Positions 4,155 to 41,487 of a DNA stretch of 64,000 nt are shown here, piece after piece; positions within the stretch are counted from its first letter, which is position 1; each line of letters begins with the position of its first letter. Below the pieces are notes generated by a model. That model was given only the letters and a program-made list of their open reading frames with translations. It did no database searches and was not told where the DNA came from. The translations under genes and the position numbers were made by a program. Source of the DNA: an uncultured Bdellovibrionales bacterium (GTDB lineage: Bacteria; Bdellovibrionota_C; UBA2361; SZUA-149; CAZDWZ01); assembly GCA_964509425.1 (NCBI GenBank), contig CAZDWZ010000011.1:35429-99428 (forward strand). The letters are read 5' to 3'.

Positions 4155-4214
4155 TGGATTGAGCTCCTCCGCTCTGACGAGCAGAGGAGCTGTATTCTCC
4201 GAAATGCAGAATAT

Positions 4215-5195: not shown

Positions 5196-5704
5196 TCGCC
5201 ACGACTTTCGCGTTTCGTCGGACGGCCTTCGCGCAGCCTTGGGGAGCGGCGAAGACGGTCGATATGCTCGTCGGTGAGGCCGGGGAGCCGGCGCGCGATG
5301 ATGCAGCAGGGGTCGCTCCCGCTCCAGCGGCGGTATGCGAAAGCTTCAACCTCACCTTCTCCGACATCATCTTCTTCGTCTGGCTACTTTTGTTTTCGTT
5401 GCATTCCCGCTGACAAATATGGTCGGCAGGAAACCCGCTTGACCACGCATCAGGGACGCCCATCAAACCGCGAGAAAACTGCTAGAAAACTGCTCGCATA
5501 ATGCTCGTTCAGCGAGCGCCCCAGAATTTCCCTCCTTCGCATAAACTTCTTTGAAACGTCGAGGAAGCCATTCCGAGACGCGTAATGTTCGGTCCCACGA
5601 GAGATATACGACAACCCGAAAAATTGTCGGACAATGATCCGCAGCGAAAATGTGCTGCGTGGGATCCGAGCGCCCAAAAAGCGATAGATGAAAAAAGAGG
5701 TTAT

Positions 5705-6124: not shown

Positions 6125-6141
6125 CGGAATTCATAATCCTG

Positions 6142-6170
6142 TTGAACCACAGAGGCACAGGGGCACAGAG
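6142..6170. repeat. second copy of the 29-bp TTGAACCACAGAG(G/A)CACAGGGGCACAGAG arm (direct orientation relative to 4291-4319)
   Basis: 28/29 identical to the right arm of the 4215-4319 palindrome. Begins with GTTGAAC (matches the integron attC R-prime consensus GTTRRRY). A further imperfect palindrome (ctctgcgtccattgcggttgc ... gcaaccgcagaggacgcaaag) follows at ~6216-6286. Confidence 0.6.
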
Positions 6171-6452
6171 ATTGCACAGGGAAGAAGCGAAGCTGGTAAT
6201 ATTCTCCACTCTGCGTCCATTGCGGTTGCATTTTGGTTTGAAGAATTTACTTGAAGGCAACCGCAGAGGACGCAAAGGAGTTCTCTTAAGGTTCTCAGTT
6301 ACAGTATGACGTTGGGTCTCTAATCGAAAGTTTCAAGAGAAAAGGCGAACAAGGAGGTTCTGTGGGATCGGTTACAACCGTCGCACAAAACCTCCTTGCC
6401 GCTTTTGTCGGTCCACCTCCTTTCACGAGATGAGTGAGAAATCAGTCGTGGG

Positions 6453-7787: not shown

Positions 7788-8117
7788 GGTACGGTTGCCC
7801 TCGTAGGGTGATGATTGGAATTCCTTTCCGATCCTTCTGCCTCCTTGTGAACACCACGCGAGACGCAAGCGGTCTTCACAAGAGCTGCAGAGCATTTCGT
7901 CTTTTCGTTTGAGGCGTAAAAAAGAGCGAGAACGGCCGGCTGGGCCGGTCGCATCAAAGTCTATGCGATCTTGGGAGCGAAAGTCTTGGAGTTTTTTTGT
8001 TGGAAGTAAGAATATGGAACGAGATAAAACTTCAGAGGCCTCGGCCCGAAGCATTCGTGTTTCCGCTTCCAATCTGAATTTCACCCGCAATCAAGATGAA
8101 AGCGGCTCCGTGTGGAG

Positions 8118-20441: not shown

Positions 20442-22262
20442 CTATCGCAAGCAGCCGCTCGAGGGATCAGTGGGATCGGTGATTGTCCGACACTCCGGAA
20501 GCATCGGCACCGGACGGGTCGCTGCTCCGCTCCCTTCGTTCTCCGCAAAAACAATCGCGCGAAATTCTGCCTGATTACAGGATCTCGGGCCCGGCATTCG
20601 AGTAAGCACCGATCCCCACGGAAATCCGACACAGCCATCCACATCCCATGTTTGCAAGCCGGTTCGTCCGAGTCCGTAGCGAAGCGCAATCGGAATATCG
20701 GTGCGAAGCACTTGGCGGTCATTCCGGTCCCTGAATCGTCCGGTTCCCCAATACACCCCCAAGTTTGGCTCACCAAGTGCATATCGCGTACGATTTATTC
20801 TCTGACAGAGAAGTCTCTGAGGGCAACTCTGACAACCCCACCCCGGAACCATACCGACGGCGATGGAATCTTCGGGACAAACATCCGTGCCCTCCACCGT
20901 CTGATCAAGCAAGATGTCCTCGGCTGGAAGAGGACAACAGGCAAAACGAGGGATCGCGCTAGCTGCCCATCGTTCCGAGTGCTTCGGAATACTTATTCCC
21001 ATCAAGGCATGACCATTCGGGCAAGTAGCCGAACTTGCGCGCCAGAAAAAGATCGGATCGCCCGGCTGAAATCCGAGACAGACATATGGCCCAGGACCTG
21101 AGGGGCCGATGCCGAACTTTTTTCCGAGCGCCGTTTCATGACCCTGGTGAATCGGAGTGGCGACATACGAGATTGCGGTCGATGTTTTTCCGGCATCGCG
21201 AGCAAGCTCTCGCCCGGTTTCTTCGAAAAGATAGCCTTCCAGGTTGGGCATGGGAACATCCGCTGCGTCGTCAAGAAAACAAATACCTTGATCGTTTGTG
21301 ACACAGACGTGGTCGGCCTTTGATTTGATCGCAACTCCCGAAAGACCTTTTGAGAGGCGAGCATACGCGACCGAGAGCACTCCCTCCGTGATTACCGTTG
21401 ATACCACATCATCCGCACCGTCGCAGTCCATGTCGGCGAACACGACGGGTGTTCCGAAGAAATTTATGCCTGAGATACTTCGACTCAAACCGCCATACTT
21501 TGAACCGAGAGAAACCCACCACCCGGAGTATTCTCCCCCATAAGCGAGAAGATCGCTTCTTCCATCGCCGTTCAAGTCCGCAAAGCCCGCCGACCTCCAA
21601 ATGGCGGTGGGTGGAAACTCAGTCCAGAGCCGCCGTTCGCCGTTTGCAGTTTCAAACGTCCACTTGTACGTGGTCTCATTATCCTGCGAGATCGAAACGA
21701 CTCCAGCGCTCCCTGGTCCGATGCGCATCATAGGAACTGAAGGACCGCCCCGCTCTCCGCGATTGGTTGAAACCACGTTGGGGCGCTCGATGAAGGCTCC
21801 ACGTCCGTCCGAAATCAAAACGTGTAAAGTCCCGCCGGAGTCTGTAAAGCGAATGTCGTCCAATCCGTCGCCCTGAAGGTCAAGCGCTCGAAGCGTTGCC
21901 TCCGAAGGGGAGTTGATGGTGAAGCCTACCGGAGCAAATTTTTTAGAATCCGCGAGAAAAAGTTCGCTGCTTGCGGTGTTTCGGATCAGGAGCTCCGAAC
22001 AGCCATCGTGAAGAAATCGTCCACCGGCAAGGACCTCGAAATTCGCGGTTCCCGCTGATATTGGAACACGAGCACTTTCAAACCGGGGGTTTTGAACCTC
22101 CGTACGTACGATAACCTTTGTCCGTTCGAAAACTTGCTCGACTTCTGCCAACGCAGAGCGGGGGAGAAGAGAATAGAGGACGGCCAGCAGTAAAGCAGCC
22201 GAGCGGCATCGCTGAGAATAGGGATGGAGCGGCCGCGAAGCTTGTTGCATATTCATAGTCAT
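20442..22262 (-). CDS. secreted FG-GAP/VCBS-like beta-propeller repeat protein
   Basis: Repeated DxNGDGxxD-type motifs: ADLNGDGRSDLLAYGG, ADMDCDGADDVVS, DLQGDGLDDIRFTDSGG. Signal peptide after the internal Met. C-terminal Cys-rich domain. Confidence 0.55.
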   Translation of the reverse strand: MTMNMQQASRPLHPYSQRCRSAALLLAVLYSLLPRSALAEVEQVFERTKVIVRTEVQNPRFESARVPISAGTANFEVLAGGRFLHDGCSELLIRNTASSELFLADSKKFAPVGFTINSPSEATLRALDLQGDGLDDIRFTDSGGTLHVLISDGRGAFIERPNVVSTNRGERGGPSVPMMRIGPGSAGVVSISQDNETTYKWTFETANGERRLWTEFPPTAIWRSAGFADLNGDGRSDLLAYGGEYSGWWVSLGSKYGGLSRSISGINFFGTPVVFADMDCDGADDVVSTVITEGVLSVAYARLSKGLSGVAIKSKADHVCVTNDQGICFLDDAADVPMPNLEGYLFEETGRELARDAGKTSTAISYVATPIHQGHETALGKKFGIGPSGPGPYVCLGFQPGDPIFFWRASSATCPNGHALMGISIPKHSERWAASAIPRFACCPLPAEDILLDQTVEGTDVCPEDSIAVGMVPGWGCQSCPQRLLCQRINRTRYALGEPNLGVYWGTGRFRDRNDRQVLRTDIPIALRYGLGRTGLQTWDVDGCVGFPWGSVLTRMPGPRSCNQAEFRAIVFAENEGSGAATRPVPMLPECRTITDPTDPSSGCLR

Positions 22263-22369
22263 TACATTCTGGAAACGATAGCCCACCGAGGCGGGAGAGG
22301 CTAGTGCTGCAATGAGTCCGAGTGAGAATTCACCGGGTGAGAGCACGAAAAAGGGTTGGTTCTAATCGA

Positions 22370-23878
22370 ATGAAAATTGAAACTCCCGCGGGTGGAAGCG
22401 CGCCGGCCCGGGTGATCACCCTGCACCGATTATTTGCCGCGGCACTCTTTTTGCTCCTCTTATCTGCCGCTGTCGCTCAAGCTCTGTACGTTTTCACCGA
22501 GGTGCGAAGGATCGCCTGGGAGTCCTCGGTCATGACCGCCGCGAGTATCGCGGATCGTTTCGTTCGTTCTCTGGCTCTCGAGCCTCACGGCGCAGTTCCC
22601 GCGGCCATGTTCGAAGCGGGAGTTCTTCGGAAGGCGTCTTTGGAATTTGCAGAGACGATGCCGGGTGCTGACCTCTTTCTCGTGAGCGAAAGCGGCCAGA
22701 TACTCGCGAATTTCAGCGAGCACAACACGATTCGACAAAAAATCGACCCGGCTCCGCTTCACGAATTTCTTCGCGTTCCGAGATCGACGGGTCCTTTGGT
22801 CTTTGGAGATGATCCGACGAGTCCAACCGGGACGACGCCATTCGTGTCGATACGTGTTCCTGGATTCGAACGGCCGACATTGTTGTACGTGGCGCTGCAG
22901 CGCACGTTTCTTCTCCGCTCACTTCGCTTCAAGTTCGACGAATATCTCCCGAAGCTCATTCTCGTGACCTTAGCAGCGCAGATTGCGACCGCAATCCTTG
23001 CGGCATTTCTCATCCGCCGCTTCCTCACACGTCGGCTCCGTTTGCTCTCGCAGGCTCTTGAGTCTTACCGCAGAGGGAAATACTCCGATCGAGTCGAGGT
23101 GAAGGGAAGCGATGAGGTCGCGGAGCTTGCATCGCTCGCGAATTCCATGGCTGATAAAATAGAGACCAGCATCAGCGCGCTCGAAGACCGTGACCGGCTG
23201 CGGCGTGAGCTCATCGCGAACGTCTCGCATGACCTTCGCACTCCCGCGAGCGTACTCCAAGGCTACAGCTCGTTGCTTGTCGATCCCAGTCGAGAGTTGA
23301 CTCATGAAGACAGAAAAGGCGTCTATTCCGCGATCGCCTCAGGCTCGCTCTCCCTCTCTCGACTTCTCGCGCAGCTTTGGGAATTATCAAGACTCGAAGC
23401 GAAAGAGCGAGTCCCGGAGCTCGAGACTTTCTGTGTCGGTGAGCTGGCCACGGAAGTGGCGGATCAACTGCGAGAGAAAGCTCGCACCCGAGATATCGAG
23501 ATCGTGATCACTATACCCGAGCCGCCTCCCGCCGTAGTCGCCGACCCGTCGCTTATCATTCGAGCACTCACCAACCTGATTGAAAACGCCATTCACTACA
23601 CTCCTTCAGGGGGAAGAGTAGAGATAGAGGTTGTGCCCGAAGCCGGTGGAGTCAGCGTGAGAGTTCATGACACGGGTGCAGGTATATCCGAAGAGGACTT
23701 GACGAGAATCTTTGAACGAACGGTCCGCGTGAAGGGTGCGGAAACCGGACAGGAAGACTCCGGCGGTCTCGGACTTGCTATCGTGAGACGAATTATGGAG
23801 CTCCACGGAATCGAAATTTCTGTTTCCAGCAAGGAAGCCGAGGGCAGCACGTTTGGGTTCGCGCTGCCACGCGCTTAA
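22370..23878 (+). CDS. two-component sensor histidine kinase
   Basis: One TM segment near the N-terminus. HisKA H-box SHDLRTPASVLQGY. HATPase_c G-boxes HDTGAGISEEDLTRIFER and GGLGLAIV. Confidence 0.8.
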   Translation: MKIETPAGGSAPARVITLHRLFAAALFLLLLSAAVAQALYVFTEVRRIAWESSVMTAASIADRFVRSLALEPHGAVPAAMFEAGVLRKASLEFAETMPGADLFLVSESGQILANFSEHNTIRQKIDPAPLHEFLRVPRSTGPLVFGDDPTSPTGTTPFVSIRVPGFERPTLLYVALQRTFLLRSLRFKFDEYLPKLILVTLAAQIATAILAAFLIRRFLTRRLRLLSQALESYRRGKYSDRVEVKGSDEVAELASLANSMADKIETSISALEDRDRLRRELIANVSHDLRTPASVLQGYSSLLVDPSRELTHEDRKGVYSAIASGSLSLSRLLAQLWELSRLEAKERVPELETFCVGELATEVADQLREKARTRDIEIVITIPEPPPAVVADPSLIIRALTNLIENAIHYTPSGGRVEIEVVPEAGGVSVRVHDTGAGISEEDLTRIFERTVRVKGAETGQEDSGGLGLAIVRRIMELHGIEISVSSKEAEGSTFGFALPRA

Positions 23879-24606
23879 CCGTCGGAGAAGTCGCTTGCTT
23901 CAGCGAATCGATAGCCAATCCCGTGTGCCGTCTTCACGAATATAGGATTCTCGGGATTCGGCTCAATCTTGATTCGGAGCCGGCGAATATTGGAGGTGAC
24001 CGTCGAGCTGTAGTTATCGATGTTGTAGCCCCACACTTCTTCTATCAACCGGGTTTTACTCACCGCGCTGCCGGGACGCGACGCGAGAAAATGTAGAAGA
24101 CTGAACTCAAGAGCGGTCAGGTCGACTACTTTGCCGTCAAGCGTCACGGAGTGTTTCTCCGGATCGATTGCAAGGGGACCGAATTTAAGCACCCCCTTCA
24201 ACACCGATTCCGGCGATTGCTGCGAGTATTTCGAACGCCGCAGCAGTGCGGAGATTCTGGCCTCCAGCTCCCGAACGCCGAAGGGTTTCGCGACATAGTC
24301 ATCGGCACCGAGTTCCAGGCCGAGCACTTTATCGATTTCCTCCGCCCGTGCGGTAAGCATGAGGATCGGTGTTTGGTCGTTTTTCGCACGAAGTCGTTTA
24401 CAAATCTCTAGTCCGCCGATTCCCGGTAAGCCGACGTCCAGGATGATCAGGTCATATTCGCCTTTTTCCGCGAGTCTCAAACCCAGCTCGCCATCAATCG
24501 CCGTCTCACTTTTATAGTGGAGTGATGCGACTGAGCGCTCGAGCAGATCGACGATCTTACTGTCGTCTTCGATAATGAGAATGATTTTTGAACTACTTGA
24601 GGACAT
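23875..24606 (-). CDS. OmpR-family response regulator (REC + winged-helix)
   Basis: IILIIEDD...LDVGLPGIGGLE...LMLTAR...ADDYVAKPF receiver motifs. C-terminal Trans_reg_C-like domain. Its stop overlaps the kinase stop by 4 nt (convergent). Confidence 0.85.
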   Translation of the reverse strand: MSSSSSKIILIIEDDSKIVDLLERSVASLHYKSETAIDGELGLRLAEKGEYDLIILDVGLPGIGGLEICKRLRAKNDQTPILMLTARAEEIDKVLGLELGADDYVAKPFGVRELEARISALLRRSKYSQQSPESVLKGVLKFGPLAIDPEKHSVTLDGKVVDLTALEFSLLHFLASRPGSAVSKTRLIEEVWGYNIDNYSSTVTSNIRRLRIKIEPNPENPIFVKTAHGIGYRFAEASDFSDG

Positions 24607-25472
24607 TCTGAATATTTTGATTCTAATTTGAACGAACGGCAAGGAGGAAAATCCGGCAGCGGCTCATTCAAGCCGACATCGGATCTCGATTCAGCGCTTT
24701 TTTCCCCGATAAACGAGGAAAAATTGCCGAGAAGAATAGAGTGACCGGACGTTTGGATATTTCATTCTTGACTCCATGTCAGTGAATGTTCGCTTTTCCG
24801 ATATGGAAAATGAATCCTGCAAAATTCCTGCGAAGGAAAAGAAAAATCCCTGAACGGCCAGGAAACACTGCGTGTGCTGCAGGAACTTCCCATACCTATC
24901 AGAGTTTCTCGTAGGAGGATCGAAGCGAAAATAGAGCACTCGTCGAGAGTGTTCTGATGAAAACGAACTTTCCGCACGTATCCCGATGCCAGCGAATAAT
25001 TGAAGTAATGGTTTCAAGCCGAAGCCTTCCGACGAAGACGAAAGGAGTACTGATTGTCTGCCAAGCGAAAGCCTCTCATCCGGAGTCTTTGCTGGAAGTG
25101 TAATAGGGTCCGAATCTGGACAACCGTCGACAGCTTCGATCCGAGGTCTCGGAGAAGACTCCACGGACTCTGCCCGCCTTGTAGCGGATTCCCCGCGACG
25201 TTCACGGGACCACGGCTCCCGCACCTGGGAGCTCAGAGGAAGAATCGAGCCGAGGAGGCAGACATCCAGTACCACGGCGATGGTTCTCTGGATGAGGTTC
25301 ATGACTGAGGAAACCAGTCCGTCCGGCACACGACACGTGCCAAGTTTGTTTCACCAAGCCAAATATCGAGCGGTAATACGGAGTACGTTTTTGAGCTGTA
25401 TTCTTGATGTATGAAAGCAGTATGAGGTGGGCTCAATACCTCTCCCGGTAAGGTTTTACTCAGGGAGAACGT

Positions 25473-27675: not shown

Positions 27676-27920
27676 AAGGCGCCCCTCTTCCTCACTCTTA
27701 CTGCGGGAGAGGTTACGGTTAGGTCCTATACCTGCTTTTACCCTCTCCCGTCTCTCCATTAATGCCGTATTCACCTCTTCTTGGAAGAGTGGCTTTGATT
27801 CAGGGTTGCGGGACGAGCCGCACCTAGCAGATGCTTTGCGTCTCGAGTTATATCGATCAAGATTCTTCGTTTCCGTAGGAGCGGAAAACATCGCAATAAA
27901 ACTCTTCGAGGCCCAAGCCT

Positions 27921-28277
27921 ATGCTTCGCCGACTGCTTCGGAAGATCTTCAAAAGACCGCCGCGTGTTCACCCGCTCCTCGTTTCGATGGATGAAGAACG
28001 GATACGCCTAAAGAATGAGCGGGACGGCGCAGAGAAAAGCGTCCTCTGGAACGATCTCCTGCAGATTGTGGTCGAGACCACGGACGAAGGGCCGTGGCTG
28101 GAGGACATGTATTATATTTTCTACACCACCTCGGAGCCCCTGGTGGTGCCCTCCGAGTCCCGAGGCGTAAGCGAGCTGGTATCAAAAATTGCGGGGCTGC
28201 CTGGCTTCGATCAGGCGCAATATTTCGCGGCCGTCGGGTCGACTGACAATAAGCAGTTTCTGGTCTGGAAGAAATGA
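27921..28277 (+). CDS. hypothetical protein
   Basis: ORF only. Confidence 0.3.
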   Translation: MLRRLLRKIFKRPPRVHPLLVSMDEERIRLKNERDGAEKSVLWNDLLQIVVETTDEGPWLEDMYYIFYTTSEPLVVPSESRGVSELVSKIAGLPGFDQAQYFAAVGSTDNKQFLVWKK

Positions 28278-28582
28278 CCCCGATACGCTCCTCTTCTTAG
28301 AGCTGAATTTCCATTCTTCAGTTATCGAAAATTCGCCTGCAATTGAGTCTTCTGCTGCGTGAGGCTCTCTGCGTTTACACATATCCATTTATAGGACTCG
28401 TTCGCGCTCGGCTCGAAGCTCAATCTAAAAAAGTGCGGCGCATTTCCCTCTGACCGCTGAGCTCACCAATCCGCGGCGGCCCGTTGTTACAGGTTTGCTA
28501 GAACACGCGGGCGTCCGGGAAAACGAATAACAGGAGCGAACAAGTCTCCGATAAAATCCAAAAAGCACGAGAGAGAAAAGAA

Positions 28583-30274
28583 ATGAAGTTTCGTCTAATT
28601 TTCTCAACGGCATTCCTCGCGCTGATCGATACGGCGCTTTTCCCCGCTCGCTTGCAACCGGCGGCTGCAGCACCGCTCGCAAATTGCGCTGAGGCAAAAC
28701 AGCTTCTCGCAGCAGTCCCCGGAACCGTGGACGTCCCGCCGCCCGCCCCGTGCGAGGCTCCGTGCACCCCATCGCGAATCGGCTGTAGTTGTCCTAATCC
28801 CACGCCGCTCCCGACGCCGACCCCCGAGCCACCCGCAACGACGACGAACGCGGCCGGAGTAGCCCCAACCGGTGGGTATACGTCGATAAGCTACGAAAGC
28901 ATTTTTGGCACCGGCATCCACCCTCAGTTTCTTACGTATGACAGAGGGAGCGTCCCGGCATGTTTGCAGCAGCGAATCGACTCGGCGTACCAAATCGCGT
29001 TTGGGATTACCCATGTCGATTCGGACAGCGAGTTCATTCGCCGGGTGCTCGGTCCATACAATCTGGGCGGAGTCGGGCAGGTAAACGTCTATAGCGGCCG
29101 AATCGTCATCGACAGCAATTGCAATCGTGTTCCGGATGACACACCGGCGGAGAATGCGATCAGCATCCGGATCATCTGTTCTCCCATATCCCTCCTCTGG
29201 GAAGCGGGAACGGAGATCGATCGCGACTTCCGGCTCGTGCGTTTTCCGCTCAACTTGAGCAAAGGCGCCGAATGGGTGGAGTGGAAGGCGTCGAAAGCTG
29301 CTCCGCTTCTCGTCTACGATCCGCTCAGAAAGCGGCAAGTCACCTCAGCAGCCGATCTCTTCGGAAACTGGAGCTTTGTCGATATCGCATCCACTCCGGA
29401 TCCAGCGAAAGCCGAGGCTCCATGGAGACACGGGTACGATGCCCTCGCGACGCTCGATCTAAATGGAGACGGCGCCATCCGGGGAGCGGAGCTCGATCCC
29501 GTTGCGCTGTGGTTTGACGAAGACCGCGACGGCGTCTCGGGAACTGGTGAAGTCGTTGGGGCGGCAGAGAAAGGTGTGACCGCACTCTATTATAAGCCCG
29601 ACAGGGTCGATGAGGATACGCACGCGATCTACGCGACGAAAGGCTTTGAAAGAGAATCAGGCGGTATTCGAATCACTGGAACTTCAGTTGACTGGTTTGC
29701 ACCGGGCGCTGGTTCACCGATTACGCTTCTTCAACACCTTCGCCGCTCACCGATTGGAAAAGCCGCCGGAGATCTTGCCATCGCACGAGCCGCCGCACTC
29801 CAGCAGGGAAATCGTGAAAATGAATCCAAGAAACAAGCGGCCGTTCAGCGAAAACGCTCCGAACAATTTGGCGGAGCATGGCGCTGGCGGGTGAACGCGA
29901 ACGATGACGACTCACAACCTCAGGGGTTTCTTCTTCTCTCGGATAAGAATGGCGAGATAAGCGGAGCAAGCGTCGTGGAAATGCTGATTCCGGGAAGTGG
30001 TGGATTGAGAATCATCGAAGCCTATCCTATTTCCGGCCGATCGTTTACGGAGCGCTCAGGCAGACGCCGCGCCGTGTTCTCCGTTTTGGAACCAAACGGA
30101 GTTTCAACCTCCGAGGTGGCGCTCGTTTCTGGCGGATTGGAGCTCGCCGGCACGACAACGCTGAAGGATGTTTCGTATCTCGGGAAAACTGTTTCGCTCG
30201 ATTACGATTGGAAGGCCGAACGGATTAAAGCGCCGAAGCCAAAAAGCCAGACGAGGCCGGAGTACGGACAATGA
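28583..30274 (+). CDS. secreted hypothetical protein (563 aa) with Pro/Thr linker and EF-hand/dockerin-like DxNGDGxI motif
   Basis: Signal peptide MKFRLIFSTAFLALIDTALFPA. PTPLPTPTPEPP linker. LDLNGDGAIRGAELD motif. Its stop overlaps the TadE-like start (ATGA). Confidence 0.55.
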   Translation: MKFRLIFSTAFLALIDTALFPARLQPAAAAPLANCAEAKQLLAAVPGTVDVPPPAPCEAPCTPSRIGCSCPNPTPLPTPTPEPPATTTNAAGVAPTGGYTSISYESIFGTGIHPQFLTYDRGSVPACLQQRIDSAYQIAFGITHVDSDSEFIRRVLGPYNLGGVGQVNVYSGRIVIDSNCNRVPDDTPAENAISIRIICSPISLLWEAGTEIDRDFRLVRFPLNLSKGAEWVEWKASKAAPLLVYDPLRKRQVTSAADLFGNWSFVDIASTPDPAKAEAPWRHGYDALATLDLNGDGAIRGAELDPVALWFDEDRDGVSGTGEVVGAAEKGVTALYYKPDRVDEDTHAIYATKGFERESGGIRITGTSVDWFAPGAGSPITLLQHLRRSPIGKAAGDLAIARAAALQQGNRENESKKQAAVQRKRSEQFGGAWRWRVNANDDDSQPQGFLLLSDKNGEISGASVVEMLIPGSGGLRIIEAYPISGRSFTERSGRRRAVFSVLEPNGVSTSEVALVSGGLELAGTTTLKDVSYLGKTVSLDYDWKAERIKAPKPKSQTRPEYGQ

Positions 30275-30756
30275 CGGCAGCCGTTTCTCGATCAAACCTC
30301 TCCGACCCGGAAGAACGTGGCGCCATCATGCTCGAGGCGGCAATCGGCTTTCCACTCTTTCTCCTCATCTTCGGAGGCGGTATCGAACTTATTCGCTTCT
30401 GCTTCTACGTGATCGGCCTCCAACTCGTTGTTACTAACGGTGTGAGAGCTTCTTCCATCGGGAACTGCGGCACAGGTGTTGTTAACTGCATACCAACAGT
30501 CAGTGCTGAACACGTGAAGGCACGGATCCTGTCTGAAGCGGCGGCGGTCGGAATAGGACTCTCCCCCGAGAGCGTGTGTATCCGCGCTGAAAGTAATCTC
30601 GACTGCACTCAAGGTCAGGACACGACCGGGAAGTCGAAGGAGCTCGTGGTGGTTCGAGTCTCCCGGCCGTTTTTTTTCTTCTTCGGATTGGGAGAGCTCA
30701 CGGTTCGTGCTGCTGCGCTTGCCCGAAACGAACCGAGACACCATGGGGCAGTGTAG
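30271..30756 (+). CDS. TadE-like pseudopilin (Flp-pilus assembly TadE/TadG N-terminal family)
   Basis: ERGAIMLEAAIGFPLFLLIFGGGIELIRF matches the TadE N-terminal segment (charged residues, then a hydrophobic helix with conserved E). Confidence 0.65.
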   Translation: MTAAVSRSNLSDPEERGAIMLEAAIGFPLFLLIFGGGIELIRFCFYVIGLQLVVTNGVRASSIGNCGTGVVNCIPTVSAEHVKARILSEAAAVGIGLSPESVCIRAESNLDCTQGQDTTGKSKELVVVRVSRPFFFFFGLGELTVRAAALARNEPRHHGAV

Positions 30757-30758
30757 CG

Positions 30759-31373
30759 ATGACCAGAATCGCAAGTACTAACAGAGACCGCTTCGAATCT
30801 GGCGTCGCACTTCTGGAGCTCGCGATTATCCTCCCGCTACTAGTCTTCATCGTTTTTAACGCGCTCGAGTTTGCTCGGCTCTCGCGCGTCATACAGGTGA
30901 GTGTCGTCCTCGCCCGTGAAGCGGTGAGCTGGTCTTATCGGAGCTGCGGGGACTTCGACGAGCCAGGCGGTTGGTCGCTGAGCGTTCAGCGGACGACTGA
31001 GTGCCTGCAAAAAGTAGTGAACACTGGAGATACATCGCCTGCAGCGCCCTCAATTCTCTCCCTCGCCCGGCAGCTAGAACCTGCGGGCGACTTCAGCATT
31101 ATCGTGAGCGTGTACCGATCCGGAGAGAGCGGAGGCCCGCTTCGGCTTGTCTCGATTGCCGGTGAAGAAGCGGACCGAGGAAGAGTGACGCGGTTTCAAG
31201 CGGTGGGGAATGAGCTCCAAGGCCCAGTGACGCTAGACGCCGCGGCGGTGCGGCGCCGCGGAAGAATCGCTGTCGCCGAAATCTATTATCCATTTTTTCC
31301 GATCTTTCGCGGTGTTCCCACCCTGGGAAGTGTTCTCGGGAGATTCGACTACTACGATGCTGCTCTACTCTAA
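30759..31373 (+). CDS. TadE-like pseudopilin (second copy)
   Basis: ESGVALLELAIILPLLVFIVFNALEFARL TadE-like N-terminus. Confidence 0.65.
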   Translation: MTRIASTNRDRFESGVALLELAIILPLLVFIVFNALEFARLSRVIQVSVVLAREAVSWSYRSCGDFDEPGGWSLSVQRTTECLQKVVNTGDTSPAAPSILSLARQLEPAGDFSIIVSVYRSGESGGPLRLVSIAGEEADRGRVTRFQAVGNELQGPVTLDAAAVRRRGRIAVAEIYYPFFPIFRGVPTLGSVLGRFDYYDAALL

Positions 31374-33147
31374 GACACCGGCGCGGTCCGCGCACGAAGA
31401 GCGGGGAGTTTTCGTGCTCACCCTCTCGATGTGGCTCATGGGGTTGATTCTCGTCGTCTGCCTGGTTGTTGATGCATCCACGCTGTACCGGCATCGTCAG
31501 CTCGTTCAACGATCCGTCGATCTGGGCGTTATCTCCGGCCTCGGGTTTCGTGCGGCGAAGGGTTGGGGCTATTTCCACGGTGATGATTTACGCGACGTCG
31601 GAAAACCTGGCGAGAAGGACAGCGAAGTGGAGGAGCATATGCGGGATACTGTGCTCGCGAATCTCTCAGTGCGCGGCATCTCGATCCCGAGAGAATCCGT
31701 GAGCGCGAGCTTCTCCAGCTATACTGATCGTGTCGAAGTATCGCTTCGCTATGATGCCCCGCTCTTACTCGTGAGCTATGTTCCCGGGATCGGCGGCTGC
31801 TCAACGGGGAGTCACACCTGTCCCGTTTTCGGCTCCGCGACGGCCGAGCTCCAACCCGCGAATATCGGTCTTGCCATAGATACCTCCGGCTCGATGAACT
31901 GTCCCGCAACGGAGGCGGGAAGTGCCGGCTGCGAATGTTTGACGAAGGACGGTTGCGCGAGCATCCCCGTAAGCGATCGAAAGCTCGCGTATCTAAAAGA
32001 AGCCGTGAAGGCGTTCATCGCGTTCTTTAACCCAAACCGGGACCGCGTCGTTCTCGGTCCGTTCAACACGGTTGGAAAAGTCGCCTTTTCGGTCAAAGAC
32101 GGCAGCAGGAAAGCTCTCCCCTTCGGGTTCGCAGGAGTTCACGAGCGAGCGACGGATAAAGCGCGGATTAATGCGTTCTATGATGAGATCGATCATCTCG
32201 ATGCCGCGGGGAACACGAATATATGTGACGGGATCTCGCGAGCGTTCTCCGATCTAAAGACCACAGAGCCCAACATTACTGAAGAGTCTCCGACGTTCCT
32301 GGTTCTCTTCTCGGATGGCGCACCTTCGGCAGGACGGTTTCACTTCACGTCTTACTCGAATAGTCTTCAAACGCAGCGCGCGAGTAATCCGGCTATGGCC
32401 GGTGACTGGTGGATCGGTACCACTGAGTGGGTAAACGCCGAGGCGGGTGGAAGCGTGCGGCGTTGGCTCGGTCCTTCGCCGCTCGTTCAGATAGAAGACA
32501 TCCCCTACGGCTATGCCGCAGGGACTCCCCCGGCAGGGGCTGATACCTGCGGCGATCTCGTTTCCGCGGACGACGATTTCCCGAGGAGTTTTAATCCCTG
32601 TCTCCGATCGTTTCGCTTCGATGGTGCTGCGCAAATTGGTGAAGCTCGAGAAGTGAGCGGAAGCGAAGGCGAGCGAGATTTCGACCATGTGAATGATTTC
32701 ACGAACGAAATGTACTACGCGCAACAATTCTATTACTGCGCGATCGAGGCAGCGGATGCCATTCGAGAGCAAGCGGGTGGCTTGGTCTATACGATAGGTC
32801 TTGGTGCCGAAGCATTTAAAGGATCCGTCGACCCGCTGCAAAACCCCACCGATCCGCTTCGCCGGAAAGAATATCTGCTCCGACGCATCGCGCTGGATCG
32901 CCATAATGGGAAAAACGATCCTCCCTTTGGTCCTCGGCGGCAAATCACGTTGAACGACCCGAACGACTCCGCGAAAGGACGAAATACGACGGTCGGGTAT
33001 GACGAGTACAGAAACTACGAGGTCTTCGCCCGTGATCCGGTCCTCCGCAATCTCGAAGGTTCTTATGAAGGCACGAATGATCCGAAGCGGCTGAAAGCCC
33101 TGTTCATTCGAACCGCAAAGGACATTCTGATTCGACTCACGGACTGA
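31357..33147 (+). CDS. TadG-like protein with von Willebrand factor A domain
   Basis: ERGVFVLTLSMWLMGLILVVCLVVDASTLY TadG-like N-terminus. vWA MIDAS-like GLAIDTSGSMNC and LVLFSDGAPS. Start at the internal ATG, giving a 17-nt overlap with the upstream gene. Confidence 0.65.
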   Translation: MLLYSKTPARSAHEERGVFVLTLSMWLMGLILVVCLVVDASTLYRHRQLVQRSVDLGVISGLGFRAAKGWGYFHGDDLRDVGKPGEKDSEVEEHMRDTVLANLSVRGISIPRESVSASFSSYTDRVEVSLRYDAPLLLVSYVPGIGGCSTGSHTCPVFGSATAELQPANIGLAIDTSGSMNCPATEAGSAGCECLTKDGCASIPVSDRKLAYLKEAVKAFIAFFNPNRDRVVLGPFNTVGKVAFSVKDGSRKALPFGFAGVHERATDKARINAFYDEIDHLDAAGNTNICDGISRAFSDLKTTEPNITEESPTFLVLFSDGAPSAGRFHFTSYSNSLQTQRASNPAMAGDWWIGTTEWVNAEAGGSVRRWLGPSPLVQIEDIPYGYAAGTPPAGADTCGDLVSADDDFPRSFNPCLRSFRFDGAAQIGEAREVSGSEGERDFDHVNDFTNEMYYAQQFYYCAIEAADAIREQAGGLVYTIGLGAEAFKGSVDPLQNPTDPLRRKEYLLRRIALDRHNGKNDPPFGPRRQITLNDPNDSAKGRNTTVGYDEYRNYEVFARDPVLRNLEGSYEGTNDPKRLKALFIRTAKDILIRLTD

Positions 33148-33295
33148 CGAGTTCCTGTCGGGTTCAAGCCTTCAGATTATCTAGAAAATATCACGTGGCC
33201 ATTTAGCGTATTCCCCAGCTGCACAAATGCGGCTAGTTTCGGCTTCACAACGAATCGGGTTACCCAGCTTTCTACAAAGATTCCAAAGGGGAGGA

Positions 33296-34141
33296 ATGAA
33301 AGGAACATTCGCAATAGGTCTTGTCGCAGCAGTTTGCGGCCTTGCCGCTCTCCACTTCTACCGTCCGGAGTTGAATCCGCCGGACAATCTTCAGCCCGAT
33401 CTGGTAAAGGCTATTTACGCCCCGGCCAGTCCGCTCAAAGTGTTCCTCGTAGATAAAATTCAAACTCCAGGTGGTACCAACTACCTCGTTCGCGGAAATC
33501 TGCCTCTCAAGTCTGACGGCAGCTACGCCTACTCAGAGCTCGCTGATACTCTGAAGAGTAAGCTCGGCATCACGTTGAGCGAACACAAGCTCGTGAACTT
33601 TTCGATCATCGACAATGTCGACGATAAAAGCCGTGAAGCCCTGAAGAATGAGTTTGTTGCGTTCGGGTTGTCGAAAGATCGATTTGAGAGCAAATATTCG
33701 CGGCAAAATTGGCCGCCCTTCGAGAAAGGCCTGGACCTCGCCACGCCGGTCGGCACTTCTGTCAACGGACATCGCGGCAGCATGATTTGGTTTCCGGTGC
33801 AGGGTTGTTCTGAAGAAGCAGATTGCCGAGCCATACAGGAGTCTCAATTTGGATTCCCTCAAGCGGTGGATGCGCTTGCCCAAAACATGAAGAGCAACGA
33901 ACCCACAATTATCTACGCCCATTGTTCACAAGGCGTCGATCGCATCGCGGCTCTGATGGCGGGGTATCTCTTGAAGCACAAAGGTGCCAGCGTCGATGAT
34001 GTATTGAACCCAGAATCTTCGAACGGAGTACAGATCCCGGTTCGGGGATTGGCGGACGCGCAAGCGGGGAAGAATTCAAAGTCCCGTTGGGCGCCGGATT
34101 ACGAGCGACTCGTCCGCTGGTATGCCGCGACCCTCGGGTGA
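33296..34141 (+). CDS. secreted protein-tyrosine/dual-specificity phosphatase-like protein (CX5R)
   Basis: GGGGAGG SD before ATG. Signal-peptide-like MKGTFAIGLVAAVCGLAALHF. P-loop IIYAHCSQGVDRIAAL fits the HCX5R signature of Cys-based phosphatases. Confidence 0.5.
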   Translation: MKGTFAIGLVAAVCGLAALHFYRPELNPPDNLQPDLVKAIYAPASPLKVFLVDKIQTPGGTNYLVRGNLPLKSDGSYAYSELADTLKSKLGITLSEHKLVNFSIIDNVDDKSREALKNEFVAFGLSKDRFESKYSRQNWPPFEKGLDLATPVGTSVNGHRGSMIWFPVQGCSEEADCRAIQESQFGFPQAVDALAQNMKSNEPTIIYAHCSQGVDRIAALMAGYLLKHKGASVDDVLNPESSNGVQIPVRGLADAQAGKNSKSRWAPDYERLVRWYAATLG

Positions 34142-34358
34142 GGCAGCCCGGGGGAGCCATGATTGATGCAGAATTGGTTTCGTGTGTAACGGTCTCATGC
34201 ACGGAATCGGGGATCTCTGAGCTGTAACTGCCCGAAAGATCCGTGTTTCCTCCTTTCATGTAAACGCGAAGGTTACACGAACTTTACAATCGCTAGCGTT
34301 CCGATAACTCGCATTTTCGAGCCTCATAACTCCAGGAGGCCAAGCAGGTTTTTTTATC

Positions 34359-35096
34359 GTGTTCTCCTGTGCTGGTCCGTTCCTAGCGCATGGAGCTCTT
34401 TCGATGTACGACAAGATTTTTCTTCCCATTTGTCTCGCCTGGCTCGGTGGCACCGCAATTTTTCACTTTATCAACCGCCACAGACTCGCCTCGTCGGTCG
34501 AAGGCGATGAACAGACGCTTTGTGATTGGGAGTTTGAGGAAGCCCGCTGGGAAAGCTTCGTGACTGCTGCTGCGCGGCGGAACGATGCTCGATGGCTCTT
34601 GGGTGCACTTCTTTCCGTCGTTCTCGCCATTCCGGTGGGGATAATTTTCTGCTTTCAAGGCGAATACCGGGTGGGAGCCTATACCATCGCCGCCGGCTTT
34701 TTGTTCACGCTCTCTAGTGCACTCGTGGGCCATTTCGTCGTTCTCCGTTGGCGCCGCGAACTGCTCGACGGACCCCGGCGGCTCATCATCTCGCTTGCCG
34801 GTGCTCGGTTGGGGAGTCTCTATTATTGCTGGTCGACTCCAGGAGCGGGAATCAAGGCAATAAATTTCAACCGTCCGGCGCCTGCCGCGCGATTGGAGAG
34901 TGTTGAGGTTGTCTACGGGTTCTCGAGCTCCTCCACCGTGAGAGTTGCGTTTCCCATTCCAGAGAGCCGGAGCCAGAAGGCTGAGGAAATTTTTCGCGAG
35001 ATCGCCGTCAGTCAGAATCTCTATGAGCTGGAAGACGGCTGGACTCGCTACCGCCCGTTCTCGACCGTTGTCGATGCCTTTCAGAAGAAAGCCTAA
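34359..35096 (+). CDS. hypothetical membrane protein
   Basis: Four TM helices. Confidence 0.45.
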   Translation: MFSCAGPFLAHGALSMYDKIFLPICLAWLGGTAIFHFINRHRLASSVEGDEQTLCDWEFEEARWESFVTAAARRNDARWLLGALLSVVLAIPVGIIFCFQGEYRVGAYTIAAGFLFTLSSALVGHFVVLRWRRELLDGPRRLIISLAGARLGSLYYCWSTPGAGIKAINFNRPAPAARLESVEVVYGFSSSSTVRVAFPIPESRSQKAEEIFREIAVSQNLYELEDGWTRYRPFSTVVDAFQKKA

Positions 35097-38027: not shown

Positions 38028-39113
38028 TTACGCTACTCCACTGTCGTCGTACGGTGTTGGGGTCGGCGTTGGTGTCGGTGTGATCCCAGTCGTAAACGCA
38101 AACCAGATATTGTTACATTCATTTCGCTGCTGCACGATGGCGTCTCTCAAGAACCACGAAAAAGTTGACGTCGCGGAACTACACGTGTTCTCGCACGACG
38201 CGAACTGAGCGCTTATCGCTGCGTAACTCTCCGCTGATGTTCCGCACTGCTCCGGGAGGCCCGCTGTCGGAATTGCATTCACACAGGACTCACATTCGGC
38301 GTCTGCCGGATTCGTCGGAGGAGTGTTGATCCAATTCCACCAATAGTCATTGCACTGCGTCTTAACAGCTTCCAAAGTGATGAATGAGAAAATTCTCGAC
38401 GCATCAGTTGCGGCGTTACACTGATTCTCGCAATCGGCGATCTGCGTGAGTGCCGCGCCGTAGTTCGCAGCGCCTCCGCAGTTAGACGGTATATCCATGC
38501 CCGAAATATTGATCGCGCACGCGCTGCACAATTCGTCCGCGGGATTCGGTGGAGGTGTGTTGATCCAATTCCACCAGTGGTCGTTACACTCTGATCGCTT
38601 CGCCTCGATAACAAAGATGGAGTAGACCGCCAAAGGTGCCGTCGAAGTGATACATTGACTCTCGCAGTTTGCGAGAAGCGTCCCGGCGGATGCATAGCCC
38701 GCTGAAGAAGTGCAGTTCGTTGCGGCGTCGAAATTTGAAACCTCGGTAGTACAGACATCGCAGGCTTCATTTGCCGGATTCGGCGGAGGAGTGTTGATCC
38801 AAGTCCACCAGTGATTGTCGCATTCTTGCCGCTTGCTTGCGAGCAGTATGACGTTGAGGAAGGCGTTTGGATCGGTAGCGTTACCGCACTGATCGCTACA
38901 TGCTGATATCCGCGCGCCGGTGGACGCATACGCATCGGCGGGAGCACAGTGCTGAGTCACGTCCAAGCTCCAGATTTCGCTGGTGCAGGTCTCGCATTCA
39001 GCATCAGCCGGATTCGGAGGCAGGTCGGAATCCGTCAAAGCGAGGACATCTCCCGCTCCGAAGAGAATCGCGAACAGTGTCAACATTTGGTACAGAACTT
39101 TTCGAGAATCCAT
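38028..39113 (-). CDS. secreted protein of four novel ~70-aa Cys-containing tandem repeats, C-terminal PTPTPTPTP tail
   Basis: Signal peptide MLTLFAILFGAGDVLA. Four units: DxPPNPAD(A/E)EC(E/D)xC...(Q/A)C.(N/S)AT......F......(C)N(D/N)(H/Y)WWNWINTPP. Confidence 0.6.
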   Translation of the reverse strand: MDSRKVLYQMLTLFAILFGAGDVLALTDSDLPPNPADAECETCTSEIWSLDVTQHCAPADAYASTGARISACSDQCGNATDPNAFLNVILLASKRQECDNHWWTWINTPPPNPANEACDVCTTEVSNFDAATNCTSSAGYASAGTLLANCESQCITSTAPLAVYSIFVIEAKRSECNDHWWNWINTPPPNPADELCSACAINISGMDIPSNCGGAANYGAALTQIADCENQCNAATDASRIFSFITLEAVKTQCNDYWWNWINTPPTNPADAECESCVNAIPTAGLPEQCGTSAESYAAISAQFASCENTCSSATSTFSWFLRDAIVQQRNECNNIWFAFTTGITPTPTPTPTPYDDSGVA

Positions 39114-40238: not shown

Positions 40239-40979
40239 TTACCTTTGTACTTGTGAGCTCCCCGACGGCATGAGGGTCGAGTCACTGGGTGTCTGAGGAC
40301 TGCCTCGCGCTTCACTTCGATATGCTTGGATGTCTCTTAGAATCTGCTTCTCGAGTGACGCCAGTTTTGATCCACTATTCCAGAATCTTCCCCCCGCGGC
40401 AGCTGCGAATTCTTGGAGGCACCCTCCTTCTCCATCGTAATCCACTGCGATTGTCGAGATGGTGATACCCATGGATTTTAGTTTATTCAGGTCCTCAATC
40501 ATGTCGCTGATGCACTCGTCCGTGGCTCCATCGCTCAGAAGAATAAAGTGCTTGCGAGTTGCCGGACAGTTTTCGAGCTGCGTCTTCGCGAACGACAACG
40601 CGGCGGTAAGATTAGATCTTGGCGAACTTACGATATTCTCAAAACTCTCTGCTGCTCGTTCCCTGACTTCTTTTACGTATGCAGGCGGAAGGAGGAGTGA
40701 CGCCTGTTCCGCGAAGCGTATCGCGGCAACGTAGAACTCATCATCCAACTGCCGGATTACATTGGGAACAGCCTTTCTCATCCGATCAAAGTTATCCAGC
40801 CGGTTAACGCTATTTGACGTATCGAGGATGAAGACTAACGCCGGAGTGTTCGCACCGCACTTTGCCGCAGGAGGCGGAGCAGAGTTAGAATCTGCAGAAG
40901 ATTCGGCGGCGATGCTCAGTGCTAGGGAAAGGGGCAGCAGCACCTTATGCCACCCGGGTAGTTTGAGATAGGCTAGCAC
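40239..40979 (-). CDS. secreted von Willebrand factor A domain protein
   Basis: vWA motifs LVFILDTSNSV and HFILLSDGATDE. Probable GTG start giving M/VLAYLKLPGWHKVLLPLSLALSIAAESSA signal peptide. The 5-prime end is uncertain (ORF extends to 41231). Confidence 0.5.
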   Translation of the reverse strand: MLAYLKLPGWHKVLLPLSLALSIAAESSADSNSAPPPAAKCGANTPALVFILDTSNSVNRLDNFDRMRKAVPNVIRQLDDEFYVAAIRFAEQASLLLPPAYVKEVRERAAESFENIVSSPRSNLTAALSFAKTQLENCPATRKHFILLSDGATDECISDMIEDLNKLKSMGITISTIAVDYDGEGGCLQEFAAAAGGRFWNSGSKLASLEKQILRDIQAYRSEARGSPQTPSDSTLMPSGSSQVQR

Positions 40980-41076
40980 TTTGCGATCTTGGTCAACCCT
41001 CACTTGAATGCACGCGAGTAACGAAAAGCAGGTAACCTTTCGCCTGCATCCGGCCCGGAGTAACTTGAGGTTTCGT

Positions 41077-41487
41077 ATGAAGAAAGCTCTCATGATTGTT
41101 GTGACCGTGGTCATCCTACTTGGATTATTCGGATGGGTGCTCCTGTCGTGGTTCAGCGCGGCTATCCACCTTTCGTATACGAAAGAGCGAGTCGTTGTTT
41201 TTGAGAAAGGAATTAGTTCCCTTTCTTCCATGTTCGCTCAGCACGCTTCGACAAGAACGTTAGTCCTGCAAAGTGTTCCGGTCAATGAAATTCGGCGGAA
41301 ATGCTCCACAGAGAAAAGGTTCCATGAGCCAATTGCCAAGGAGGAGCTGGAACTCTCGTTCCATTTTTTCTGCTTTCAATTTGACGAGCGAGAGAACCTT
41401 GTGCAGATAGATTTCTTCTCACGAAAGGTGTGGGAGCGAGTACACGAAAAGCTAGAGGCGAACAGCGCCCTTGAACCGACGAAATAG
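41077..41487 (+). CDS. hypothetical membrane-anchored protein
   Basis: MKKALMIVVTVVILLGLFGWVLLSWF N-terminal TM anchor. Confidence 0.4.
   Translation: MKKALMIVVTVVILLGLFGWVLLSWFSAAIHLSYTKERVVVFEKGISSLSSMFAQHASTRTLVLQSVPVNEIRRKCSTEKRFHEPIAKEELELSFHFFCFQFDERENLVQIDFFSRKVWERVHEKLEANSALEPTK

Follow-up and report, generated by a model that had tools for sequence, protein, structure and literature searches.

Tad pilus tips in predatory bacteria

Separately encoded, interchangeable Tad tips are a recently described means of prey recognition and killing by predatory bacteria. For instance, the Kil Tip clusters 1-4 of Myxococcus xanthus (Herrou et al. 2025, PMC12075869) each encode a small, a medium, and a large TadE/TadF/TadG-like pilin, named KilL, KilM, and KilN. 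Such trios form tips that can be exchanged for one another, with three of the four encoded away from the kil clusters. The Kil tip complex was predicted to be a heterotrimer, with a helix bundle at the base and the domain of the large subunit at the apex. A host with a Kil-like Tad machine (and T3SS*) is a further hallmark of Kil-type tips, and according to that study the profiles of Kil tips occur in Myxococcota only. A tip complex was predicted for B. bacteriovorus as well (PMC12075869).

The tad genes of B. bacteriovorus are dispersed, with a tadG that stands alone, and silencing of this tadG lowers prey invasion (bioRxiv 10.64898/2026.07.08.737194). Furthermore, PilD, a T4aP peptidase, processes the Tad pilin in this species, and the two systems thus share parts. 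Meanwhile, in the canonical tad/cpa systems of Aggregatibacter, Pseudomonas, and Caulobacter, the genes of TadE, TadF, and TadG lie inside the tad operon, by tadA/B/C and rcpA.

Gene organization of the cassette

The genes studied here lie in a 64-kb window (the whole stretch of DNA that was analysed), whose host, judged from the nearest homologues, probably belongs to Bdellovibrionota. Their features are as follows:

28583-30274, + strand: g1, ORF of 563 aa; predicted Sec-type exported protein with a signal peptide, a Pro/Thr-rich variable region at the N-terminus that contains Cys, a Ca-binding SPM-like domain, and a beta-barrel at the C-terminus
29180-29722, + strand: SPM-like domain of g1, aa 200-380 (g1-family profile, AF2/Foldseek)
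29456-29551, + strand: the canonical EF-hand loop pair of g1: DLNGDGAIRGAE at aa 292-303, DEDRDGVSGTGE at aa 312-323
29870-30223, + strand: eight-stranded C-terminal beta-barrel of g1, aa 430-547, lipocalin/avidin-like (AF2, Foldseek)
30271-30756, + strand: g2, ORF of 161 aa; small TadE-type minor pilin with the putative prepilin cleavage site ERG/AIMLE (the slash marks the cut), Glu at +5
30759-31373, + strand: g3, ORF of 204 aa; TadE/TadF-type minor pilin with the putative cleavage site ESG/VALLE; Cys63 and Cys82 conserved
31357-33147, + strand: g4, ORF of 596 aa (alternative start, GTG at 31312); TadG-like large minor pilin with a hydrophobic N-terminal helix, a pilin-like sheet, and a vWA domain that has inserted arms
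31879-31893, + strand: MIDAS DxSxS of g4, D175-T-S177-G-S179 (alignment columns, translation)
33296-34141, + strand: g5, ORF of 281 aa (alternative start, ATG at 33227); predicted Cys phosphatase of the DSP superfamily that has a hydrophobic N-terminal segment and the P-loop HCSQGVDR at nt 33920-33943

The sequence-only reading had described five co-directional, tightly packed genes. We found that the common direction applies to all five ORFs, but the packing applies only to g1-g4 (28583-33147), which are a tightly packed set of four. g1 and g2 overlap by 4 nt with a common ATGA, g2 and g3 are spaced by 2 nt, and g3 and g4 overlap by 17 nt. g5 lies outside this packing, after a 148-nt gap, and the GGAGG ribosome-binding site at this junction belongs to g5 itself. 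In addition, the EF-hand loops of g1, the MIDAS residues of g4, and the P-loop of g5 could all be read in the translations.

TadE-, TadF-, and TadG-like minor pilins

Both g2 and g3 carry the prepilin site G/xxxxE and a hydrophobic helix, and across the whole 64 kb this motif followed by a hydrophobic stretch was found only in these two proteins. The g2-family alignment shows an invariant G17 and an almost invariant E22; in the g3-family alignment the prepilin Gly, E20, C63, and C82 are all invariant. The same processing motif is found in canonical TadE and TadF.

When the proteins of the window were searched against Pfam, their scores fell under the cut-offs: 18.6 bits for g2 and 21.4 bits for g3 against TadE (PF07811, cut-off 22.9), 16.1 bits for g4 against Tad (PF13400, cut-off 22.3) and 23.9 bits against VWA_2 (cut-off 27), and 23.6 bits for g5 against DSPc (PF00782, cut-off 33.5). 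The family calls were nevertheless kept because homologues or orthologues match the same families. For example, TadE was matched by 20 of the 22 g2 homologues (best E 2.3e-5) and by all 23 g3 homologues (best E 3.1e-13), PF13400 was present in 4 of 10 database homologues of g4, and DSPc was matched by 29 of 36 g5 relatives (best E 1.3e-11). Furthermore, at one related locus (L009) the orthologues of g3 and g4 score above the cut-offs, with 33.1 bits for TadE and 29.3 bits for Tad PF13400, respectively. The two TadE-like pseudopilins proposed from the sequence alone are thus retained on the motif and on family-level matches, and the HMM searches support the calls at the level of the family.

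The MIDAS residues of g4 are found in DTSGS, in GNTNIC (Thr), and in SDGAP (Asp). D175, S177, S179, T287, and D320 are invariant in the g4-family alignment and make up a complete MIDAS, and four invariant cysteines (C182, C192, C194, and C200) follow the DxSxS. The single-chain AF2 model of g4, of modest quality (mean pLDDT 60), includes a vWA core and a long N-terminal helix (12-68). Foldseek matched it best to pilus-tip adhesins of the vWA type, namely SpaC, GBS104, and RrgA. These results, together with the L009 orthologue, bear out the assignment of g4 as a TadG-like protein with a vWA/MIDAS domain.

Distribution of the trio and comparison with described tips

A Pfam scan of all window ORFs of at least 300 aa and most ORFs of at least 200 aa gave no match to T2SSE, T2SSF, secretin, or peptidase A24, and the view that the window lacks a Tad core therefore held. 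The trio was found in about 40 loci, mostly of Bdellovibrionota MAGs, and the small-medium-large order and the translational coupling are conserved across them. In the relatives, the trio is nearly always flanked by housekeeping genes, and the families listed for these flanks include neither T2SSE nor T2SSF nor secretin. A distant trio of Vibrio is also orphan, and it scores well over the Pfam cut-offs. The trio relatives are only 25-35% identical, yet the functional positions (Gly, Glu at +5, paired Cys, and MIDAS) are invariant or nearly so. In the relatives L002-L004, SctJ/SctQ-like genes are located at a distance of about 7.5 kb from the trio.

The trio resembles the Kil Tip clusters in its three co-encoded small, medium, and large pilins (161, 204, and 596 aa, from packed genes), although this likeness is one of layout and not of sequence comparison with KilLMN. 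The two also share a location mostly apart from machine genes, conserved cysteines, a variable distal domain on the large subunit, and a predator, or a probable one, as host. However, g4 has a distal domain that can be recognised as vWA/MIDAS, whereas that of KilN has an unknown fold. Moreover, an SPM-like fourth gene is present here, and none is mentioned for Kil in the part of that report drawn on (PMC12075869).

B. bacteriovorus HD100, which probably belongs to the same phylum, likewise has scattered tad genes, tad loci without TadV, and a tadG that lies away from the core and was called a tip protein (bioRxiv 10.64898/2026.07.08.737194). The difference is that tadE and tadF travel with tadG here. 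A motif scan for the g4 family recovered uncultured Bdellovibrionota MAGs only, and not tadG of B. bacteriovorus. Compared with canonical TadE/TadF/TadG, the trio shares the N-terminal TadE or Tad domain, as called at family level, and the vWA of TadG, but it does not lie by tadA/B/C and rcpA, and its sequences have diverged enough to score under the Pfam cut-offs. By analogy, the trio is a further example of the separately encoded tips already described in predators (Myxococcus Tip and B. bacteriovorus tadG), and g1, a relative of a self-cleaving toxin module, is an unusual extra to the described pattern. The cassette and its about 40 relatives suggest that an orphan tip is conserved in uncultured Bdellovibrionota; the distal domain of this tip is a classical metal-dependent adhesin and thus a concrete candidate for prey attachment.

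Proposed function and alternative explanations

We proposed, with a probability of roughly 0.7, that g2, g3, and g4 form a tip for a pilus of the Tad (type IVc) class, the machinery of which is encoded elsewhere, with g1 as an accessory and g5 as a bystander. This agrees with the first of two alternatives raised in the sequence-only reading, a local adhesive tip module with the pilus core elsewhere, and it is supported by the about 40 orphan loci and by the precedents of Myxococcus Tip1-3 (PMC12075869) and B. bacteriovorus tadG (bioRxiv 10.64898/2026.07.08.737194). In the proposed mechanism, the motor, platform, secretin, major pilin, and prepilin peptidase of an assumed partner machine would be encoded elsewhere in the genome. 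g2, g3, and g4 would enter the inner membrane via the N-terminal hydrophobic helix, and the prepilin peptidase would cut g2 and g3 past the conserved Gly, leaving Glu at +5. The three helices would then bundle and prime pilus polymerisation, which would place the complex at the fibre's distal end. There, g4 would present its vWA domain with the complete MIDAS, and a divalent cation would mediate ligand binding on a target surface. The target would most likely be prey cells, because the host probably belongs to Bdellovibrionota.

The trio might instead serve another type IV filament (T4aP or T2SS-like) or a pilus-independent membrane or periplasmic vWA complex. The lack of a Tad core in the 64 kb and in the flanks of relatives would fit this explanation, as would the processing of a Tad pilin by the T4aP peptidase PilD in B. 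bacteriovorus (bioRxiv 10.64898/2026.07.08.737194) and the absence of Glu at +5 from g4, both in the translation and in the g4-family alignment. However, the sole pilin families of Pfam that were matched, TadE (PF07811) and Tad (PF13400), are specific to Tad, an N_methyl-type T4a/T2SS pilin motif was not found, and the published orphan trios operate with Tad/Kil machines (PMC12075869). We thus consider this explanation unlikely. Decay of a paralogous tad locus into a remnant without function would also leave an orphan cassette with proteins under the Pfam cut-offs. Nevertheless, the reading frames are all intact, the key residues are invariant at 25-35% identity, and the gene order and translational coupling are kept in about 40 loci, which makes a remnant highly improbable.

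Another explanation is that all five genes make up one functional operon, in which an exported g5 would be an effector delivered by the tip or a regulator of it. The sequence-only reading was right that g5 is phosphatase-like: HCSQGVDR is read in the translation, the g5 profile matched DSPs in PDB at about 1e-7, and among 36 relatives H209, G213, and R216 of the P-loop HCxxGxDR are invariant and C210 is nearly invariant. In favour of one operon, this P-loop is intact, g5 shares the strand of the other genes, neither an intrinsic terminator nor a sigma-70-like promoter was detected in the gap after g4, and a hydrophobic segment at the N-terminus sets g5 and its closest relatives apart from most of the phosphatase family. 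However, the 148-nt gap and the own ribosome-binding site of g5 differ from the overlaps within g1-g4. Furthermore, an exhaustive phmmer search gave 85 relatives of g5, and none was found near the trio in 58 other loci; at L009, for example, polA and not a phosphatase follows g4. The earlier inclusion of the phosphatase in the tip module was therefore dropped, and a five-gene operon seems quite improbable to us. g5 is most likely an unrelated, independently acquired neighbour outside the module.

g1 and the FrpC self-processing module

FrpC's self-processing module (SPM) has four EF-hand-like Ca2+ sites and the tryptophan pair W451/W519 (PMC7078468). In FrpC/ApxIVA, this module lies inside an RTX protein with type I export (6sjw; PMC7078468). 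We found that g1 is homologous to the FrpC SPM (PF26745). The precomputed Pfam annotation of g1 includes PF26745, which is also present in all 16 g1 homologues, and the g1-family profile matched FrpC SPM structures 6sjw/6sjx in PDB with E 1.5e-13. In addition, the SPM core of the g1 AF2 model has a pLDDT of about 80-94, and its best Foldseek match is 6sjw (E 8.6e-7, TMt 0.66). The first description of g1 as a 563-aa protein with a DxNGDG motif agrees with the ORF and translation. Its description as a large secreted protein also fits the Sec-type signal, but both the homology to the FrpC SPM and the conserved linkage to the trio had been missed.

The two EF-hand loops of g1 align with the FrpC loops D499-D511 and D521-E532 (PMC7078468), and their residues D292, E303, D312, and E323 are invariant in the family alignment, as are W234 and W310. 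Thus, two of the four EF-hand loops (loops 3 and 4 of FrpC) and both Trp are kept in g1, whereas the counterparts of loops 1 and 2 (LLWEAG and DPLRKRQVTSA) are not EF-hand-like. g1 shares with FrpC/ApxIVA this Ca-binding fold, the boundary Pro, and a variable region N-terminal to the module. At the boundary, the scissile D414-P415 of FrpC corresponds to S200-P201 of g1, where the equivalence of P201 and P415 was deduced from motif and spacing and not from residue-level structural alignment. [ST]-P is found at this position in 16 of the 16 aligned family members and in the further homologues at L009 and L039, and none of these has the scissile Asp-Pro at the N-terminal boundary of the module. 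Judged from these sequences, g1 appears to be without the Asp required for canonical clip-and-link cleavage, and no aspartic anhydride would be possible because Ser/Thr replaces this residue.

g1 also differs from FrpC/ApxIVA in its Sec signal peptide, in the linkage to a probable pilus-tip operon, and in its C-terminal barrel, for which AF2 placed the strands at 431-547 (pLDDT about 65-84) and Foldseek matched the lipocalin 4gzv (E 4e-4) and avidins. The local Pfam scan of g1 matched no family, hence no RTX-repeat family. Meanwhile, PilY1, which rides on the tip complex of type IVa minor pilins, is likewise a large, Sec-exported, Ca-binding non-pilin co-encoded with minor pilins. This comparison is a functional analogy only, and no relationship between PilY1 and g1 was found in sequence or fold. 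PilY1 carries vWA and Ca site on a single protein, whereas here g4 has the former and g1 the latter.

g1 is the sole flank conserved with the trio. The order g1-g2-g3-g4 was found in the window, at L039 (49-63% identity), and at L009 (28-35% identity), so the linkage rests on three genomes, two of which are close relatives; g1 homologues in other loci mostly stand alone. In these three genomes, the cassette opens with an SPM relative that has a Sec signal, is not part of an RTX toxin, and seems to lack the catalytic Asp. We infer that g1 acts with the tip as an accessory or cargo that depends on Ca2+. In this sub-lineage it is translationally coupled to the trio; its product would be exported by Sec, and its FrpC-SPM-like domain would fold outside the cell upon Ca2+ binding. 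If g1 works with the tip, Ca2+-triggered folding, and possibly processing, would be tied to pilus function, and the SPM would occur in wider contexts. The SPM is now also applied in protein engineering (NeissLock).

A bolder and rather far-fetched reading is that g1 is a Sec-exported SPM branch dedicated to the Tad tip, a "clip-and-link" pilus tip, in which Ca2+-dependent folding and a non-canonical cleavage would free the variable Cys-rich N-terminal region or anchor it covalently on the tip or the prey surface. The candidate cut sites would be the [Ser/Thr]-Pro boundary and Asp246-Pro247, an invariant internal Asp-Pro of g1.

Organization of the Locus

Five ORFs on the forward strand make up the locus: a cassette of four genes (g1 to g4), in which g2-g3-g4 is the trio, and a downstream neighbor (g5).

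28583-30274, + strand: g1, ORF of 563 aa, Sec-exported protein resembling SPM, the self-processing module of FrpC
30271-30756, + strand: g2, ORF of 161 aa, predicted TadE-type minor pilin
30759-31373, + strand: g3, ORF of 204 aa, predicted TadE-type minor pilin
31357-33147, + strand: g4, ORF of 596 aa, predicted TadG-like vWA pilin
33296-34141, + strand: g5, ORF of 281 aa, predicted Cys phosphatase

All five ORFs of the sequence-only reading were borne out. The first four are packed or overlapping: the end of g1 and the start of g2 have an ATGA in common, g2 and g3 are 2 nt apart, and 17 nt are shared by g3 and g4. The fifth follows after a spacer of 148 nt and has a GGAGG ribosome-binding site of its own. 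A scan of 27800-34600, the g4-g5 gap included, found no promoter- or terminator-like site on the + strand; since none was found anywhere in this interval, the scan is uninformative on the co-transcription of g5. The RNA structure of the spacer was nothing unusual (z = +1.1). In addition, tRNA and Rfam scans of the whole window gave no matches and thus no sign of an island boundary, and the G+C content is even (about 0.50-0.62). The same DNA is also present as a Logan contig of run SRR13608702, and the proteins of the window are recorded on a 149-kb NCBI contig.

The Trio as a Probable Tad Tip Module

Individually, the window proteins scored below the Pfam cut-offs: 18.6 bits (g2) and 21.4 bits (g3) for TadE (cut-off 22.9), and, for g4, 16.1 bits for Tad (PF13400; cut-off 22.3) and 23.9 bits for VWA_2 (cut-off 27). 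NCBIfam matched none of g1-g5. The upstream genes of every g4 relative were then gathered and aligned as families, and TadE was matched by 20 of the 22 g2-type and all 23 g3-type proteins. Furthermore, in L009 (Bdellovibrionota STL-BDEC1; L numbers denote fetched loci bearing relatives of g1-g5), the closest complete relative, the orthologues of g3 (33.1 bits) and g4 (29.3 bits) exceeded the TadE and Tad cut-offs, respectively. A class III signal, consisting of Gly, Glu at +5 and a hydrophobic helix, was predicted in g2 (ERG|AIMLE) and g3 (ESG|VALLE). Its Gly and Glu(+5) are invariant or nearly so in both alignments, and within the 64 kb the motif was found in g2 and g3 only. Setting this family evidence against the sub-threshold scores of the single proteins, we consider the family-level support for g2, g3 and g4 as predicted Tad minor pilins to be firm, and the TadE-TadE-TadG order proposed earlier stands.

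The g4 protein has the Gly ahead of its N-terminal helix but lacks Glu at +5. Its metal-ion-dependent adhesion site (MIDAS) is complete, with D175, S177, S179, T287 and D320 invariant in the family alignment, and four invariant cysteines lie downstream of it. An AF2 model of modest quality (mean pLDDT 60) has an N-terminal helix of 57 residues, together with a vWA core and a small sheet; its best PDB matches were the vWA pilus-tip adhesins SpaC, GBS104 and RrgA, and the vWA domain of an Aeromonas adhesin was also matched. Relatives of g4 are few and, outside its own cluster, at most about 35% identical.

The trio was found as an orphan in many genomes. The genome scan gave 27 loci, most of them in Bdellovibrionota MAGs, and the metagenome scan about nine further family loci, which contained no relative of g1 or g5. 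The window itself is assigned to Bdellovibrionota by the closest homologues of g1-g4. An HMM census showed that the g2-g3-g4 order is kept in about 40 of the 59 fetched loci. The order departs in L029 (9205-12192) and L045 (1727-4714), where a g3-type and a g4-type gene are followed by a weak g2-type gene. The flanks hold the housekeeping genes queF, bioB, ileS, msrAB, hemA/C/D/E and serS, together with M23 peptidases and mannosyltransferases. T2SSE, T2SSF and secretin were absent from the families listed for the flanks, a census of the 25 commonest families that a lone Tad core gene in one flank could escape. In the window itself, Pfam found no Tad core component (T2SSE, T2SSF, secretin or A24 peptidase) in the ORFs scanned (all of at least 300 aa and most of at least 200 aa); many ORFs in the window, 200-440 aa long, matched no Pfam family.

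Separately encoded Tad tips are already known. Herrou et al. (2025; PMC12075869) showed that the Kil Tad pilus of Myxococcus has four interchangeable tips, formed by the TadE/F/G homologues KilL/KilM/KilN. Clusters away from the kil genes encode three of these tips, a single tip is enough for pilus priming, and the apex is the distal domain of the large subunit. The authors also predicted a tip in B. bacteriovorus. In that species, the tad genes are dispersed, with a lone tadG among them; the tad loci lack TadV, Flp1 is processed by PilD, and silencing of tadG lowers prey invasion (bioRxiv 10.64898/2026.07.08.737194). Like three of the four Kil tips and the lone tadG, the window trio has no core beside it among the ORFs scanned. 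It therefore fits the established pattern of Tad tip modules encoded separately, and it carries a recognizable metal-dependent adhesin domain. The trio proteins would assemble on a Tad machine, their complex would be located at the pilus tip, and it may bind prey. The earlier suggestion of a tip module with its core elsewhere is thus supported by the window ORFs scanned, the orphan order in about 40 loci and the published precedents. Most of what was flagged then as odd, namely the orphan status, is by now documented as the rule among predatory bacteria.

Stand-alone trios are not confined to predators, since a distant TadE-TadE-TadG(Tad+VWA) trio of Vibrio sp. UCD-FRSSP16_30 (L033, 8519-10894) stands alone, with SpoU methylase/JmjC genes on one side and an epimerase gene on the other. 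Its proteins score well above the Pfam cut-offs (52 and 44 bits for TadE). In L002-L004 (about 1-1309), the trio is preceded at a distance of about 7.5 kb by genes for a SctJ/YscJ-like protein (244 aa), a SctQ/FliMN_C-like protein and a sigma factor, and YscJ_FliF occurs in two more flanks. The Sct-like genes are noteworthy because the Myxococcus tips need a needleless T3SS (PMC12075869).

The SPM Homologue

The sequence-only reading had noted a DxNGDG motif in secreted g1. The motif is present, and the description was incomplete: g1 has two canonical EF-hand loops, DLNGDGAIRGAE and DEDRDGVSGTGE, and is a homologue of SPM. A precomputed match assigns it to PF26745 (SPM). A profile of 16 g1 homologues gave one strong kind of solved structure, the Neisseria FrpC SPM (6sjw/6sjx, E = 1.5e-13), and 6sjw was also the top Foldseek match of the confident AF2 core (aa 200-380). 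In the AF2 model, the last 120 residues of g1 fold as a barrel, which resembles lipocalins and avidins according to Foldseek.

In FrpC, Ca2+-dependent folding strains Asp414-Pro415, and the Asp side chain attacks to give an anhydride and then a lysine link (PMC7078468). The boundary Pro (P201), the stacking Trp pair (W234, W310) and EF loops 3 and 4 of FrpC are kept in g1, whereas EF loops 1 and 2 are gone and the scissile Asp is replaced by Ser or Thr before Pro in every family member examined. Therefore, the canonical clip-and-link chemistry is not expected in g1. Since a plain pairwise alignment of g1 and the FrpC SPM was ambiguous over the N-terminal 40 residues, the equivalence of P201 and P415 is based on profile alignment, spacing and motif. 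In addition, the fold itself contains an Asp-Pro pair, Asp246-Pro247 (window 29318-29323), whose position corresponds to that of FrpC D462; the Asp is invariant in the family and the Pro nearly so.

Three genomes have g1 in front of the trio, in a shared gene order and with the same coupling: the window, L039 (GCA_041907505.1; identity to the window 49% for g1 and 61-63% for g2-g4) and L009 (32% and 28-35%). Elsewhere, relatives of g1 stand alone in unrelated contexts. We rejected the idea of an SPM protein always traveling with the trio, g1 being present in only 3 of about 40 trio loci; this distribution indicates a lineage-specific addition to the cassette. By analogy with PilY1, g1 may be a tip accessory; the literature searched contained no link between SPM and pili. 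What is new in the cassette is this SPM-like fourth gene. The really unusual feature would be the coupling of a pilus tip to an SPM that is exported by Sec and lacks the scissile Asp, as judged from the sequences of three genomes.

The Phosphatase g5

A word-indexed search with g5 matched only g5 itself, and its relatives were obtained by exhaustive phmmer. The P-loop HCxxGxDR is conserved across 36 relatives, DSPc was matched by 29 of these, and the family profile matched DSPs in the PDB at about 1e-7. Thus, g5 is predicted to be a true DSP/PTP-superfamily protein. It has an N-terminal hydrophobic segment, which most of its family lack. Among the fetched loci, no g5 relative was near any other trio, and in L009 polA follows g4, where the window has g5. 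We therefore treat g5 as a neighbor; the phosphatase-pilus link proposed earlier was not supported, and the idea of a phosphatase always traveling with the trio was rejected.

Other Genes in the Window

DUF1501 and HEAT/PBS-lyase repeat proteins are encoded at 490-8090. In the region 20442-24642, 4-8 kb upstream of the cassette, the - strand encodes an FG-GAP repeat protein of 634 aa and an OmpR-type response regulator; the gene of the latter is convergent with that of a HAMP/HisKA histidine kinase on the + strand. An exported 361-aa protein (38028-39113, - strand) without a Pfam match consists of Cys-rich units of about 75 aa, repeated in tandem about four times, with the motifs NPADAECETC ... 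WWxWINTPPPNPA. A second vWA protein (40239-41231, - strand, 330 aa), which exceeded the PF00092 cut-off by a wide margin (59.6 bits), is encoded on the opposite strand, some 7 kb downstream from the cassette.
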